Source: Alphaproteobacteria bacterium
Lineage (GTDB): Bacteria > Pseudomonadota > Alphaproteobacteria > SP197
DNA: 64,000 nt
Direction: 5' to 3'
Assembly: GCA_965228895.1 (NCBI GenBank)
Contig: OZ245842.1
Span: 192,001 to 256,000 of the forward strand
The notes below the pieces were generated by a model. It did no database searches and was not told where the DNA came from. It worked only from the letters and a program-made list of their open reading frames with translations. Of the stretch, positions 14,089 through 57,268 are shown piece by piece. Position 1 is the stretch's first letter; every line of letters begins with the position of its first letter. The position numbers and the translations under genes were made by a program.

Positions 14089-15063
14089 ATGCTGAAGTTC
14101 TATGCCGTTGACGGCGAAACCCTCCGGGTGAGTGATTTTCCGGGTGGCTCCGTCGCGCCGGAAGGCCCGATCTGGTTCGATCTGCTCAATCCGACTCACG
14201 ATGAGCGCGATACGGTTGCTGCCGCCGTCAATGCGCCGGTTCCGACACGCGAGGAGATGGAGGAGATCGAGGTCTCAAGCCGGCTTCGCGACGATGACGG
14301 TGTGCTCTATCTGACCGCCACCGTCATCAGCGGCGCCGACACCCAGGATGTCAGCAGCAGCGCCATCACCTTCATGGTGGCGAACCACCGATTGGTCACC
14401 ATCCGTTATCAGGACCCCAAGCCGTTCTCCGTGGTGTCCGACAGGCTATCGCGCCTGCATGCGGCAAGTCTTTCAGGCGAACTGATCCTGATTACCTTGC
14501 TGGATGCGGTCATCGACCGACTGGCCGATGTTCTCGAACGCCAGGGCGCCGACATCGAGGCGATCTCGCGCGATATCTTTCACTATGACAGCGACGGCAA
14601 GCCGGAGGGTCATGAGTTCGATGACCTGATCCGGCGTATCGGCAGGGCCGGCGATATGACGGCGCGGGTCCGCGAAAGTCTGGTCAGTATCGCGCGCCTG
14701 CTGCTCTTCGTTATCAACAGCCCGCAGGTGCGCGGCAAGCATGTCGGGCGCGAGCGGTTCAAGACCTTGCACCGCGACGTGACGTCACTGGCCGACCACG
14801 CGACGTTCCTGGCCAACAAGACGAACTTCCTGCTCGACGCGACGCTCGGCATGATCAACATCGAGCAGACGGGCATCATCAAGATCTTTTCGGTCGCCGC
14901 CGTCGTGCTGCTGCCGCCAACCGTGATCGCGTCGATCTACGGCATGAACTTCGAGGTCATGCCGGAGCTCGACTGGGATTTCGGCTATCCCTTCGCGCTC
15001 CTGCTGATGGTGATTTCCGCCGTGCTCCCCTACCTCTGGTTCAAGCGCAAGGGTTGGCTCTAG
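14089..15063 (+). CDS. corA: CorA Mg2+/Co2+ transporter
   Basis: YGMNF signature, MPEL.W..GYP, C-terminal FKRKGWL. Confidence 0.96.
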   Translation: MLKFYAVDGETLRVSDFPGGSVAPEGPIWFDLLNPTHDERDTVAAAVNAPVPTREEMEEIEVSSRLRDDDGVLYLTATVISGADTQDVSSSAITFMVANHRLVTIRYQDPKPFSVVSDRLSRLHAASLSGELILITLLDAVIDRLADVLERQGADIEAISRDIFHYDSDGKPEGHEFDDLIRRIGRAGDMTARVRESLVSIARLLLFVINSPQVRGKHVGRERFKTLHRDVTSLADHATFLANKTNFLLDATLGMINIEQTGIIKIFSVAAVVLLPPTVIASIYGMNFEVMPELDWDFGYPFALLLMVISAVLPYLWFKRKGWL

Positions 15064-15199
15064 AGCAGATCCTGTTTTGATGGATTCGCTTCGCGATGAC
15101 ATCAAGACAGGTGAATCCGCTCTACTCATCGATAAAGAGCGGATTCACATGGTTAGATGGGACCCTCAAGCGGTCCCATCTAACCATGATCCGCTCTAG
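15060..15199 (+). repeat. 140-bp CTAG-bounded palindromic dispersed element (MITE/BRU-RS-like), copy 1
   Basis: CTAGAGCAGATC...GATCCGCTCTAG ends; perfect 17-bp internal stem CATGGTTAGATGGGACC/GGTCCCATCTAACCATG; gapless alignment to 29087-29226 and 57129-57268. Confidence 0.93.
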
Positions 15200-15205
15200 G
15201 CTTGT

Positions 15206-15880
15206 TCAGCCGCGCAGTTCCCAGGCGCGGTTCAAGAGGTCGTGCATGGGGCCGCGCCGGTGGCCAATCTTGTCGAGCGACGCCACGGTCTTGATCAGAT
15301 AATCGATGCACGGTCCGGCCGGGCCCTCGGCCAGGGCGATATGACGCGCCACGTCCTCGTCGTCGAGGCGGCCGGCATAACGTTCCATCTGCGGGTTGAT
15401 GGTAAAGACGATGGCCTGGACCGCGCCCTCATGGGTCTCCGCGTCAACCCAGCGCGGAATGTACGCATTGGACAACATTTCGCGGCGCCATACCCGGTCG
15501 GTTGCCTGTTCGATGTTCTCCGGCGCGATCGCCAGGGCCATGCCACGGCACGAGCCGCCGGGTTCCAGGCCCAGCATCAGGCCCGGTCGTTCCGGTGTGC
15601 CGCGGCCCAGGACGGTCCACAGACAGAAACGCCGGTGCCAGCCACGCACCAGGGCGGCGCGTGTTTCGGCGACGGTAAAATCGGGGTTCCACATCAAGGA
15701 GCCGTAACCGAACACCCAGACCGGTTCTCCCGGCTTGGCCGATCTCAAGAGGTCATGACGGGTTGCATCACGCTCCTCATCGCCCATCAAGTCGATGAGG
15801 CCGTCGTCAGAGGCCCGCTGAATGATCTCCGCAATCTCGGGCGTCCAGTAGTGGTCCGGGTTGATACGTTGCCGGGACAT
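15206..15880 (-). CDS. chaC: ChaC-family gamma-glutamylcyclotransferase
   Basis: VWVFGYGSLMW, RGTPERPG..LGL..GGSCRG, WRREM. Confidence 0.92.
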   Translation of the reverse strand: MSRQRINPDHYWTPEIAEIIQRASDDGLIDLMGDEERDATRHDLLRSAKPGEPVWVFGYGSLMWNPDFTVAETRAALVRGWHRRFCLWTVLGRGTPERPGLMLGLEPGGSCRGMALAIAPENIEQATDRVWRREMLSNAYIPRWVDAETHEGAVQAIVFTINPQMERYAGRLDDEDVARHIALAEGPAGPCIDYLIKTVASLDKIGHRRGPMHDLLNRAWELRG

Positions 15881-29086: not shown

Positions 29087-29226
29087 CCGGAGCAGATCCT
29101 GGTTTGATGGAATCGCTTTGCGATTCCATTAAGGCAGATGAATCTGCTCTATTCATAGATAGAGAGCGGATTCACATGGTTAGGTGGAACCGCTTAACGG
29201 TTCCACCTAACCATGACCCGCTCTAG
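29087..29226 (+). repeat. 140-bp palindromic dispersed element, copy 2
   Basis: CCGGAGCAGATC...GACCCGCTCTAG; perfect 18-bp stem CATGGTTAGGTGGAACCG/CGGTTCCACCTAACCATG; 24 and 17 mismatches to copies 1 and 3. Confidence 0.93.
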
Positions 29227-30927: not shown

Positions 30928-31004
30928 GAGCAATTCCCAAAGGGTTGGGAATTGCTCCGATCATTTGATGTAGAGCGGATTCACGCGATGTGATCGATCC
31001 GCTT
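30928..31004. repeat. short/degenerate relative of the 140-bp element
   Basis: 13-bp perfect stem GAGCAATTCCCAA/TTGGGAATTGCTC, spacer, then TAGAGCGGATTCAC...GATCCGCT containing the element's third module and part of the fourth. Confidence 0.65.
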
Positions 31005-31014
31005 TGTGGGTCGG

Positions 31015-32076
31015 TCACATCGCGATCCGCATTACGTGCGGCGGATCGGCTTGAAGCGCTTCGCGGATCAAGCGCTGGAAAAAGATGGTGCCGGGCTCCT
31101 TTTCTGGCGACAGCTTGCCGGATTGGTAGATCCCGGCCTCCAGGTTCATCTGCACCTTCAGACAAACGCCCATGTCTTCGTGCATGATGGCAATCGAATC
31201 CTCGATGTACGTTCGGCCATAGGCTTCCTCGCCTTCCGGGAACCAGTACCAGGAACGGATGGTCAAAGCGCCGGCACGATCCGGTTCGACCTGCTCGATA
31301 TTCAGCGCGCGGTCGGAATAGTGCAGCAGCAGCCCGGGGAACTTGTAGATCCACAAACCCTTGTTGGCGCGCGTGTCGGATTCGCCGCCATAGTCGACGT
31401 GAAAACCGACAAAACCGCCGTTCTCGTACGGCCGGATCTCGGCGCCCGACACCGCCTTGTTGAGCGCGCCGTGGACGAAGGGCAGGTGGTAACCCTCGCA
31501 CGAGTTGTCGCCGTACGCCTTCCAGTCGCAGGCGCCGTCCACGCTTGTCTTATCCAGGAAGACGAAGCTCTTTGCCGCCGGGTAGTCGTCGGCCAGGCGC
31601 CCGACATCGCCCATCCAGGCGGCGAGGTCCGGCGCAGCCTCTTCCAGGCAGACAAAGACAAGGCCTCGCCAAGTTTCGACGCGCACGGGGAAAAGCCCGA
31701 ACTTCGATTTGTCGAGGGCGCCGGACTCGGGAAACCCCGGCGCCGTTCTCAGACTGCCGTCGAAACCGTAGATCCAACCATGGTACTGGCAGCGCAACGC
31801 CTGGGAGCGTCCGCCGTCGTCCGTGAAAAGCGGTCCGGCGCGATGGCGGCAGACATTGTGGAAGGCGCGCAAGCCACCCTCGCGATCACGCACCACAAAG
31901 ACCGGCCAGCCCGTCACGTTGGCGGTGACATAGTCGCCTGCCTGCGCCAATTGTTGCTCGCGGCCAACCAGCCACCAATTGCGCGCGAAGATCATCTGGC
32001 GCTCGCGCTCAAACTGATCGGCGTCGTGATACCAGGCAGCGGGCAGGGTATCGGTCAGGATTTGTGGTGCGGCCAT
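31015..32076 (-). CDS. Rieske non-heme iron oxygenase alpha subunit (choline monooxygenase-like)
   Basis: CRH...CQYH Rieske motif; WK...DN..EGYH...H and ED mononuclear Fe ligands. Confidence 0.92.
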   Translation of the reverse strand: MAAPQILTDTLPAAWYHDADQFERERQMIFARNWWLVGREQQLAQAGDYVTANVTGWPVFVVRDREGGLRAFHNVCRHRAGPLFTDDGGRSQALRCQYHGWIYGFDGSLRTAPGFPESGALDKSKFGLFPVRVETWRGLVFVCLEEAAPDLAAWMGDVGRLADDYPAAKSFVFLDKTSVDGACDWKAYGDNSCEGYHLPFVHGALNKAVSGAEIRPYENGGFVGFHVDYGGESDTRANKGLWIYKFPGLLLHYSDRALNIEQVEPDRAGALTIRSWYWFPEGEEAYGRTYIEDSIAIMHEDMGVCLKVQMNLEAGIYQSGKLSPEKEPGTIFFQRLIREALQADPPHVMRIAM

Positions 32077-57090: not shown

Positions 57091-57132
57091 GTTGACCGCG
57101 CGTCCGGTTGATCCGACCGGGTCATGCTCTAG
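57088..57132 (-). repeat. short hairpin element sharing its CTAG with copy 3
   Basis: minus strand CTAGAGCATGACCCGGTCGGATCAACCGG...GGTCAACTCA; GAGC-type terminus and an imperfect stem. Confidence 0.45.
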
Positions 57133-57268
57133 AGCAGATCCTGTTTTGGTGGAATCACTTTGCGATTCCGTCAATGCAGGTGAATCTGCTCTACTCAAAA
57201 ATGGAGAGCGGATTCACATGGTTAGGTGGAACCGTCAAACGGTTCCACCTAACCATGATCCGCTCTAG
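57129..57268 (+). repeat. 140-bp palindromic dispersed element, copy 3
   Basis: CTAGAGCAGATC...GATCCGCTCTAG; perfect 19-bp stem CATGGTTAGGTGGAACCGT/ACGGTTCCACCTAACCATG. Confidence 0.93.

Follow-up and report, generated by a model that had tools for sequence, protein, structure and literature searches.

The element at positions 15060-15199 of the window (the whole stretch of 64,000 nucleotides that was analysed) is best explained as one copy of a MITE of about 136 bp that resides in a CTAG target, is mobilised in trans in the manner of IS630/Tc1-mariner elements, and has its stems kept by arm-to-arm correction at the level of DNA, a reading to which we assign a probability of roughly 55%. That it is a MITE follows from what we observe, as it is small, below about 300 bp, and non-coding, carries terminal inverted repeats, duplicates a TA, is missing from empty sites and exists in many copies; one property usual for MITEs, an autonomous partner sharing the terminal repeats, was not found among the DDE_3 matches searched. 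Likewise, the feature that characterises IS630/Tc1-mariner insertions, a 2-bp TA duplication with a preference for CTAG, is present.

Layout of the element and its copies in the window

Read from left to right, copy 1 consists of CTAG-GAGCAGAT (15063-70)...ATCCGCTC (15115-22)-linker-GAGCGGAT (15137-44)...ATCCGCTC (15189-96)-TAG, which confirms the four alternating GAGCRGAT/ATCYGCTC modules that the initial annotation had described at these coordinates. The segments GTGAATCCGCTC and GAGCGGATTCAC lie at 15111-22 and 15137-48, respectively. In a repeat search, the arms of the right hairpin (15148-15164/15172-15188, 17 nt) are 100% complementary, and the element as a whole forms an inverted repeat of 73% (15060-15123/15136-15199). 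The left TA together with G15063 forms the TAG stop codon of corA, which thus sits within the CTAG at the left edge of the copy. The features of the locus, and the further copies in the window, are as follows.

14089..15063, + strand: corA-like Mg2+ transporter gene (Pfam CorA, E 7.6e-50)
15061..15062, no strand: left TA of the target-site duplication (CTAG target), from empty versus filled sites
15063..15070, + strand: module 1, GAGCAGAT, left terminal inverted repeat, also forming the 5' side of the left basal stem
15071..15111, + strand: left inner hairpin, 15071-15089 paired with 15093-15111 around loop 15090-15092
15112..15122, + strand: TGA bulge (15112-14), then module 2, ATCCGCTC (15115-22), with the GANTC motif GAATC
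15123..15136, no strand: A+T-rich linker separating both hairpin units
15137..15147, + strand: module 3, GAGCGGAT (15137-44), then TCA bulge (15145-47), with the GANTC motif GATTC
15148..15188, + strand: right inner hairpin, 17 perfect bp (15148-64/15172-88), loop CTCAAGC
15189..15196, + strand: module 4, ATCCGCTC, the right terminal inverted repeat
15197..15198, no strand: right TA of the duplicated target, from empty and filled sites and flank TA counts
15206..15880, - strand: ChaC-like gene, convergent, ending 7 nt past copy 1 (Pfam ChaC, E 1.5e-38)
29087..29226, + strand: full copy 2, between divergently oriented genes
30949..31030, + strand: degenerate lone right-type hairpin unit (nhmmer, model positions 54-135)
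57129..57268, + strand: full copy 3, flanked by two + strand genes

As had been claimed, the right inner stem is perfect in all three full copies of the window despite paired substitutions and differing loops: copy 2 has 18 bp around a CTTAA loop and copy 3 has 19 bp around CAA, next to the 17 bp of copy 1, and both carry GGTGGA/TCCACC where copy 1 has GATGGG/CCCATC. Throughout the family, the sequence of this stem varies freely among copies while its complementarity is retained. The left inner hairpin is variable in sequence, pairs imperfectly and is rich in G.T on the + strand, and module 1 co-varies with module 2 when elements are compared across taxa. A TA adjoins the basal module of each hairpin unit, and hairpins of either the left or the right type also occur alone in the genome; the lone unit at 30949..31030, for example, retains the module GAGCGGATTCAC with an inner stem different from that of the full copies. 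Overall, the element is built as a dimer of two TA-flanked hairpin units, each of which comprises an 8-bp basal terminal module (GAGCRGAT/ATCYGCTC), a 3-nt bulge and a long, freely varying inner stem.

Dispersal, insertion sites and the search for a transposase

Searching the 5.53-Mb genome with nhmmer yielded 135 non-overlapping loci of this family, which are 70-99% alike. The family includes a young subfamily with copies up to 99% identical. The full-length copies are 140 nt long and non-coding, all 94 of them lie between predicted genes, and the termini GAGCRGAT and ATCYGCTC are conserved in 83 full-length copies. Two congeneric genomes contain at least 35-42 matches each. Further afield, the two-hairpin architecture is also present in records labelled Rhodospirillales, Kiloniellaceae, Pelagibius, Reyranellaceae and Hyphomicrobiales, among others, and, among 401 genomes sampled from the class, 6 contain the exact pattern of the right hairpin, with a reversed-pattern control giving 0. 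Listing the bare 8-mer modules genome-wide was uninformative, since they are common in coding DNA. A search of PLSDB plasmids with the element returned no match, and a literature search for the module strings returned unrelated primers only.

Mobility was assessed from 60 element loci in the two congeneric genomes, 51 of which could be mapped in this genome by both flanks. At these 51 sites, 39 are empty here, eight hold a full orthologous copy and four a partial one; all eight full orthologues share their orientation (8/8), and at one orthologous site this genome carries two copies in tandem. Clean empty sites (L122 and L124) read ...CTAG..., and filled ones C-TA-[element]-TA-G. Of the 83 full-length copies, 55 have TA on both flanks and 80 on at least one; C occupies column 1 in 58, and G occupies column 140 in 60. 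Since these two outer columns vary, unlike the nearly invariant columns 4 and 137, a duplication of 3 or 4 bp is excluded. Two cases did fit a 4-bp duplication (CTAG/TTAG), which was rejected because column 137 keeps its C even when column 1 differs. The flanking TAG serves as the stop codon of a predicted gene in 36/83 copies, and CTAG itself is about 7-fold under-represented genome-wide. At the corA-chaC locus, no clean empty site was found in two sister genomes: in one, the spacer measures 13 nt and the stop codons differ, and in the other it consists of 67 unrelated nt; the comparison of empty and filled sites draws on other loci.

In the favoured reading, a non-autonomous transposon inserted at the TA of a CTAG, here the one holding the TAG stop of corA, and the TA was duplicated in the process; the transposase, presumably of the IS630/Tc1-mariner type, would be supplied in trans. 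No DDE_3 transposase with matching ends was found in this genome or in ten others searched, four of which have a DDE_3 match; this partner search covered the DDE_3 matches of these genomes. The sole DDE_3 match of this genome is a pseudogene fragment with two in-frame TAG codons, and the modules are absent at the DDE_3 loci of the element-bearing genome G003 and of three of the five other element-bearing genomes searched. Transposases of the Y1/HUH (RAYT) type gave 0 PF01797 matches in this genome, which is 98.7% complete. Two half-elements, one right and one left, bracket 712 bp (genome positions 5493524-5494371) and had suggested an enclosed RAYT-like gene. This was rejected, as the ORF inside them is an ordinary gene of 252 codons and each half is a single-hairpin element in its own right.

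Folding, compensation and strand bias

The initial annotation held that copy 1 can form either two long hairpins (modules 1-2 and 3-4) or a cloverleaf (modules 1-4 and 2-3), and both folds are indeed possible for this copy. Its further suggestion, a possible switch between two conserved folds, is not supported. The two-hairpin fold pairs 92.9% of cells, against 74.5% in shuffles (0/500), and sliding the partners out of register leaves 27-41% paired. Both sides of a pair have changed at 11 of the 12 left inner pairs, 15 of the 18 right inner pairs and three of the ten module 1-2 pairs, and at none (0) in the cloverleaf helices. The outer (module 1-4) cloverleaf helix is 79% paired; 52 of 53 sequences place an A.C mismatch in it, and covariation of modules 1 and 2 disrupts it further. 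The two-hairpin fold is the more stable one in 46 of 50 cross-taxon elements. As such, covariation backs the two-hairpin fold alone. Given that four near-identical, alternating modules always make the cloverleaf pairing geometrically possible, this fold is a by-product of the four-module design and no conserved second state.

Folded as RNA and compared by constrained energies with canonical pairs only, copy 1 has the cloverleaf as its MFE structure (-84.5 kcal/mol versus -79.0 for two hairpins), copy 2 favours two hairpins (-80.9 versus -77.8) and copy 3 gives a tie; the folds lie within 2 kcal/mol of each other in 34/83 copies. For the three copies of the window, folding z-scores range from -11.5 to -13.7 over both strands (+ strand -11.7 to -12.4, - strand -11.5 to -13.7), with 0 of 200 shuffles as stable. 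This is well outside what chance would give. For copy 1 as a whole, its two strands are equally stable when folded (-84.5 versus -85.0).

That the element is not merely decaying also holds true, as its stems are actively kept paired, which is seen both in the excess of pairing over shuffles and in compensation between orthologues. In ten pairs of orthologous copies, eight compensated double changes and 13 single-side changes fall in the right inner stem, compared to an average of 1.82 and a maximum of six both-side hits in 2000 permutations; in the left stem, three compensated doubles stand against 26 single-side changes. Between these orthologues, 8.1% of positions changed in the right stem, 10.0% in the left stem and 9.6% in unpaired columns. 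This shows that the compensated changes of the right stem arose in the inserted copies themselves, about as fast as unpaired columns change. An 18-bp stem that stays complementary yet changes like unpaired DNA is what arm-to-arm conversion, and not purifying selection, would be expected to leave behind. We therefore infer from these sequence comparisons that the stems, and the right one especially, are kept complementary mainly by arm-to-arm correction of DNA rather than by selection on RNA, which makes the fallback of the initial annotation, strand-templated repair of inverted repeats, the reading we favour. Such correction might proceed through template switching during replication of the quasi-palindrome, or through mismatch repair of an extruded hairpin, whereby a new mutation in one arm would be either reverted or copied to the opposite arm. 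Mutation by template switching at quasi-palindromes is well established, and the process has been proposed to create and maintain hairpins (PMC7202029, PMC8794818).

The strand bias is a different matter. An excess of G.T over A.C on the + strand had been noticed, and it is confined to the left hairpin of this genus. The left inner stem has 135 G.T versus 22 A.C in the 83 full-length copies (140 versus 26 in an alignment-free count), and genus-wide the left hairpin has 254 versus 34 in 142 copies; nearest-neighbour comparisons give 186 versus 32, pairs that are not independent, so that their significance is overstated. Furthermore, the + strand of the left hairpin is more stable than the - strand in 74 of 83 copies. 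Conversely, the right stem is balanced (31 versus 32 in 83 copies, 50 versus 52 in 142, and 52 versus 51 across taxa), and left hairpins of elements beyond this genus's subfamily are unbiased, with 47 G.T versus 62 A.C. A lagging-strand single strand as the cause of the bias was discarded, as element orientation relative to replication is 47:47. Nor is orientation fixed relative to transcription units: tandem gene contexts hold 28 copies in the same and 17 in the opposite direction, which is not significant, and 28 and 21 of the 94 full-length copies lie in divergent and convergent contexts, respectively. The + strand excess is real, and unrelated to the direction of replication or of neighbouring genes. 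Arm-to-arm correction alone predicts symmetry and does not account for it.

Could the element then act as a + sense structured RNA, be it a two-hairpin/cloverleaf switch or a stability or processing element of the 3' UTR, in which selection keeps the stems and tolerates G.U? The very stable + strand folds, the near-isoenergetic alternatives with the cloverleaf as MFE of copy 1, the G.U excess and higher + strand stability of the left hairpin, the 36 copies that abut a stop codon and are predicted to be co-transcribed, and the sense-leaning 28:17 in tandem contexts all point that way. However, the - strand folds equally well, the right hairpin is symmetric and other taxa lack the bias; the 28:17 is not significant, and 28/94 copies sit between divergent genes. 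The cloverleaf, moreover, has helices that lack covariation and are broken by that of modules 1 and 2, and it loses to two hairpins in most cross-taxon elements. Rfam gave no match in the window at the gathering threshold (and chance-level matches only at E up to 10, the best ranging from 0.31 to 8.7), a consensus scan of copy 1 found no promoter-like or terminator-like site, occupancy differs between species at 39/51 sites, and change is as rapid in the stems as in unpaired columns. We consider a selected RNA very unlikely for these reasons. Much the same low standing applies to the idea that orthologues owe their paired differences to gene conversion by, or replacement with, already palindromic copies from elsewhere in the genome, with no correction inside the hairpin. 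The 135 loci offer ample similar sequence, variant pair types that differ between orthologues recur in other copies, and one orthologous site does hold two tandem copies; yet for no fewer than 20 Watson-Crick pair types, each confined to a single one of the 83 copies, the set contains no donor, and the origin of complementarity in each variant is left unexplained. Gene conversion between copies could nevertheless contribute to the differences between orthologues.

The hairpins may also be needed for transposition itself, for example if a folded single strand presents the terminal repeat as a duplex, and covariation and bias would then be inherited from foldable master lineages. This is unlikely, though it deserves more weight than a selected RNA: architecture and modules are conserved across distant taxa while stem sequences are free, the left-hairpin bias follows the polarity of the element independently of replication and gene direction, and a young subfamily exists. 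Against it, the compensated doubles between orthologues arose after insertion, in a number (eight) above any permutation, TA duplication typifies elements that are cut and pasted as double strands, such as IS630/Tc1-mariner, and neither a Y1/HUH match in this genome nor a candidate transposase was found. Somewhat less probable still, in our estimation, is that two separate processes act, a fast, sequence-blind arm-to-arm correction at about the neutral rate that would keep the right hairpin perfect, and, in this genus, a reading of the left hairpin as a single strand of fixed polarity. The latter may be an element-borne transcript or a strand-specific step of transposition, in which G.T would be tolerated and A.C purged, whatever the direction of replication and transcription in the host. 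On balance, a MITE whose stems are corrected arm to arm remains our preferred explanation.

Relation to described repeats and significance

RUP elements (repeat unit of pneumococcus) are non-coding repeats of about 100-150 bp with terminal inverted repeats that insert at and duplicate TA, are dispersed between genes and are attributed to IS630. The present element resembles RUP (compared by description only) and other IS630-attributed MITEs in size, terminal repeats, TA duplication and intergenic dispersal, but differs in being a dimer of two separate hairpin units with four modules, and in that the DDE_3 searches gave no IS630-type partner whose ends match. REP/BIME and the RIME of Rhizobium are likewise mosaic intergenic repeats of palindromic units that also occur singly. 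REP units, however, are far shorter and associated with a Y1 (RAYT) transposase acting on single strands, whereas this genome has 0 PF01797 matches and the element duplicates TA.

Closer to home, the CIR elements (CcrM-associated intergenic repeats) of Caulobacter, described by Chen and Shapiro in 2003, reportedly have an inverted-repeat organisation with GANTC motifs at fixed places. They share with the present family their occurrence in Alphaproteobacteria, the intergenic inverted-repeat layout and the conserved GANTC, although CIR1-4 were compared by description and not by sequence. In our alignment of 142 copies, GANTC occupies consensus columns 54-58 in 128, 83-87 in 130 and 24-28 in 90, and 134 of the 142 carry two to four sites, against 1.72 per kb genome-wide. 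A CcrM equivalog was undetected in the genome (best NF050803 match 42.5 bits), and its N6_N4_Mtase matches are three ParB-fused enzymes only. According to a review of MITEs, CIR exceed 100 bp and are strictly intergenic, and RNase III cuts mRNAs containing Correia repeats at the inverted repeats (PMC10969869), an effect on RNA of the sort that the initial annotation envisaged. The Correia repeats of Neisseria (CREE/NEMIS) are similar in being small, TA-flanked and palindromic, with transcripts that fold into hairpins; they differ in phylum and sequence, and in forming one long hairpin from their terminal repeats instead of two internal ones. The family was matched to no described one, with the comparison to CIR1-4 made by description.

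Taken as a MITE family, these repeats form a large group in marine and soil Alphaproteobacteria, with insertions at TAG stop codons and within promoter regions. Compensatory changes, a G.U-like bias and near-isoenergetic folds can all occur in a selfish DNA repeat, and are thus insufficient for calling an RNA switch. If arm-to-arm correction is indeed what keeps the stems paired, the repeats could be used to measure the correction of quasi-palindromes in natural genomes; and should two separate processes shape the right and left hairpins, the elements would be natural reporters of template-switch repair of short palindromes.

Layout, stability and genomic location of the repeat

The element at 15060-15199 (copy 1) is built from four 8-nt modules, GAGCRGAT or ATCYGCTC, in alternating orientation, and can be drawn either as two hairpins (modules 1-2 and 3-4) or as a cloverleaf (modules 1-4 and 2-3). 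Columns are positions in the 140-nt consensus, and the + strand is the element's own polarity.

Full copies of the element in the window, and GANTC motifs of copy 1
15060-15199: copy 1, CTAG-GAGCAGAT-left stem-loop-TGA-ATCCGCTC-TA-linker-GAGCGGAT-TCA-right stem-loop-ATCCGCTC-TAG
29087-29226: further full copy, right inner stem 18 bp, different loop
57129-57268: further full copy, right inner stem 19 bp, different loop
15083-15087: GANTC motif, columns 24-28, in 90 of 142 copies
15113-15117: GANTC motif, columns 54-58, in 128 of 142 copies
15142-15146: GANTC motif, columns 83-87, in 130 of 142 copies

In a repeat search, the right inner arms of copy 1 (15148-15164/15172-15188; 17 nt) proved 100% complementary and the two halves of the whole element 73% complementary, and paired substitutions are present in the right inner stems of both other window copies. 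All three copies, on both strands, gave folding z-scores of -11.5 to -13.7, with none of 200 shuffles as stable. Because every copy folds far better than its shuffles, the modules, hairpins and paired substitutions described in the initial annotation are real rather than a product of chance. The window also holds a lone degenerate hairpin unit (30949-31030) with the same GAGCGGATTCAC base as the element and an unrelated inner stem, which indicates that the module is common to more than one stem lineage in this genome.

A profile built from the copies identified 135 non-overlapping loci in the 5.53-Mb genome. High-scoring full-length copies make up 83 of these (94 full-length without the score filter), and about 40 are partial, solo left or solo right hairpins among them. 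A home-made codon-model gene finder predicts 4890 genes (88% coding) and places all 94 full-length copies in intergenic DNA, 28 in divergent, 21 in convergent and 45 in tandem contexts; the genome-wide intergenic regions are 19%, 19% and 62%, respectively. Copy 1 occupies the whole interval between a corA-like gene and a ChaC-like gene convergent with it, and the corA stop codon TAG sits within the CTAG at the element's edge. Elsewhere, about 3.5 diverged copies stand head to tail in a tandem array between divergent genes (G000:C1:4900800-4901280, in this genome). Two 20-bp palindromes with CTAG ends, at G000:C1:1284298-1284323 and 5432879-5432904, have module 1 fused directly to module 4, and look like elements collapsed by deletion between direct GATCC repeats, or excision remnants.

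Insertion at TA and taxonomic range

The flanks of 60 element loci from two sister genomes of the same genus were mapped onto this genome, and both flanks could be placed for 51. At 39 of these (35 distinct sites) this genome is element-free, at 8 (7 distinct sites) it holds a full orthologous copy, always in the same orientation, and at 4 only a half or truncated copy. For these four sister-genome loci (L136, L142, L147 and L158), the sister genome has a full two-hairpin element at the site. The occurrence of full and partial copies at shared sites implies that at least some solo hairpins and dimers are connected through a unit gained or lost, probably via the direct repeats that modules 1/3 or 2/4 make up.

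In a clean case, L122, the empty site reads ggcctacCTAGacacc and the filled site ggcctac-C-TA-[GAGCAG...CCGCTC]-TA-G-acacc; L124 shows the same pattern. TA is found on both sides in 55 of the 83 copies and on at least one side in 80. The outer flank bases are variable (C in 58/83, G in 60/83) and the first and last element bases nearly invariant, which excludes a 3- or 4-bp target duplication. The element is thus mobile and duplicates TA at insertion. In 36 of the 83 copies the flanking TAG is the stop codon of a predicted gene. CTAG is about 7-fold under-represented genome-wide (2891 sites, relative to a composition-based expectation), and TAG accounts for 1536 of the 4890 predicted stop codons; together, these concentrate the target at gene ends and explain insertion on stop codons.

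TA duplication within CTAG is known behaviour of IS630/Tc1-mariner elements. Among the DDE_3 loci searched, no transposase with ends matching the element was found. The sole DDE_3 (IS630-type) match in this genome is a pseudogene fragment (G000:C1:892350-892604) with two in-frame TAG codons; its neighbourhood starts with TAGAGCG, and the full module is absent there. The modules are likewise absent at the DDE_3 loci of G003, another searched genome, and of three of the five other element-bearing genomes searched, and this genome has no Y1/RAYT transposase.

The 140-nt sequence matches all three genomes of its own genus and, at about 70% identity, all three of the sister genus, with no match in 15 genomes of another genus in the family or in the 16 other families sampled. 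A pattern for the right-hairpin base reaches further, to at least 114 loci in a species-representative collection. By their record labels, the listed matches belong to Rhodospirillales, Kiloniellaceae, Pelagibius, Reyranellaceae, Geminicoccaceae, Azospirillaceae, Hyphomonadaceae, Hyphomicrobiales and others, and nearly all share the two-hairpin design, with stems that differ considerably in sequence. When the class was sampled evenly, 6 of 401 genomes, each from a different one of 308 genera, carried the exact pattern and none its reversed control. Neither the plasmid collection nor Rfam contains a match to the element.

Two hairpins and the cloverleaf

Pairs were counted in an alignment of 53 sequences, the three window copies and 50 elements taken from other taxa. 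The two-hairpin fold pairs 92.9% of cells, against 74.5% in shuffles (0/500 reach it), and sliding the 3' partners lowers this to 27-41%. Changes on both sides occur at 11 of 12 left and 15 of 18 right inner pairs, and three pairs of the module 1-2 helix show covariation (GC 44/UA 6/CG 2; AU 36/CG 11/GC 1; GC 30/AU 12). For the cloverleaf, pairing reaches only 79.0% between modules 1 and 4, where one position fails to pair in 52 of the 53 sequences and a second in 23, and 94.3% between modules 2 and 3, for the most part as G·U. Since the search pattern fixes modules 3 and 4, the cloverleaf test amounts to asking whether modules 1 and 2 have kept their resemblance to these; instead, they drift together, away from modules 3 and 4, and no pair of either cloverleaf helix shows changes on both sides. 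The cloverleaf is therefore a geometric consequence of four near-identical modules in alternating orientation rather than a conserved state, and the proposed switch between two conserved folds is not supported.

As RNA, both folds have similar energies in this genome: among the 83 copies, 61 favour the two-hairpin fold, 21 the cloverleaf and one neither, and the two lie within 2 kcal/mol in 34. Under DNA parameters, 75 of the 83 favour the two-hairpin fold. Among the 50 cross-taxon elements, this fold wins in 46 as RNA and 48 as DNA. Copy 1 belongs to the minority with a cloverleaf RNA MFE (-84.5 vs -79.0), because a C in its module 2 perfects the 2-3 helix.

Right-stem compensation, left-stem bias and related elements

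The comparison covered ten pairs of orthologous copies: this genome and a sister genome supplied six, the two sister genomes four, and the flanks are about 75-96% identical. The right inner stem differs at 29 of its 360 sites, through 8 compensated doubles and 13 single-side changes. When as many changes were permuted 2000 times, both sides of a pair were struck 1.82 times on average, with a maximum of 6, counting any both-side strike, of which only some would be complementary. As 8 doubles exceed that maximum, right-stem compensation arises in place, after insertion. The left inner stem, with 3 compensated doubles and 26 single-side changes, is not above chance (2.10). Change rates are 8.1% for the right stem, 10.0% for the left stem and 9.6% for unpaired columns, and right-stem compensation thus proceeds without slowed evolution, and without a preference for G·T over A·C.

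Purifying selection on an RNA helix is not what would give this pattern, as it predicts slower change and G·U intermediates on one strand, and the right stem shows neither. Unbiased arm-to-arm copying, on the other hand, would yield arms that remain complementary yet change at the rate of unpaired columns, and we infer arm-to-arm correction at an about neutral rate. Replication template switching at quasi-palindromes is documented as a mutational route, with a proposed role in both the creation and the maintenance of hairpins (PMC7202029, PMC8794818). Conversion from other element copies may contribute to the differences between orthologues, but it cannot be the whole explanation, because no fewer than 20 Watson-Crick pair types each occur in a single one of the 83 copies. 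Selection among master copies for foldability may also play a part; a left-hairpin bias whose polarity is intrinsic to the element would be consistent with it, but changes between orthologues cannot be accounted for by such selection alone.

The left-hairpin bias is well pronounced. Summed over the 83 copies, G·T and A·C mismatches number 135 and 22 in the left inner stem, and 31 and 32 in the right. An alignment-free count treating both transition mismatches alike gives 140 vs 26 and 60 vs 59, and adding 59 sister-genome copies gives 254 vs 34 and 50 vs 52. Among 124 nearest-neighbour comparisons, whose pairs are non-independent, the left stem shows 186 Watson-Crick/G·T and 32 Watson-Crick/A·C differences. 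For the left hairpin, the + strand is the more stable one in 74 of 83 copies; for the right hairpin, the split is 40 to 39. Substitutions are denser in the left 3' arm (columns 34-52; 0.179 per column per copy) than in the 5' arm (columns 12-30; 0.093), and those of the 3' arm are mostly A>G, at columns 42, 48 and 50. Element polarity is split 47:47 relative to replication direction and, in tandem contexts, 28:17 relative to neighbouring genes (not significant), which argues that the bias is independent of host processes.

In other taxa, the right hairpin has 52 G·T and 51 A·C among the 114 matches listed. For the left hairpin, the 85 of 114 listed loci that pass a hairpin filter, a few of them spurious hairpins where only the right unit exists, have 65 and 62. 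Seven loci of this genus's subfamily supply 18 of those 65 G·T and no A·C, leaving 47 vs 62 elsewhere among the listed loci. The strand bias reported in the initial annotation thus holds for the left hairpin of this genus, and not for the right hairpin or for other taxa; it is the element's one unexplained feature.

In function and structure, the element is like RUP and Correia elements, as a TA-duplicating MITE. The MITE review PMC10969869 states that Correia-containing transcripts are cleaved by RNase III and that the CIR repeats of Caulobacter are strictly intergenic. The element resembles CIR in its conserved GANTC motifs. These sites lie in the bulge-plus-module regions and the left hairpin tip, and are about 12 times as dense as in the genome at large (1.72 per kb). 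A search of this genome detected no CcrM equivalog (best match 42.5 bits, cut-off 830), the only N6_N4_Mtase matches being three ParB-fused proteins of 453-473 aa. Taken together, what was observed in the initial annotation stands, and its interpretation does so in part: the left-hairpin G·T bias is retained, an RNA switch is not indicated, and the element belongs with the ordinary selfish repeats, as a TA-duplicating MITE.
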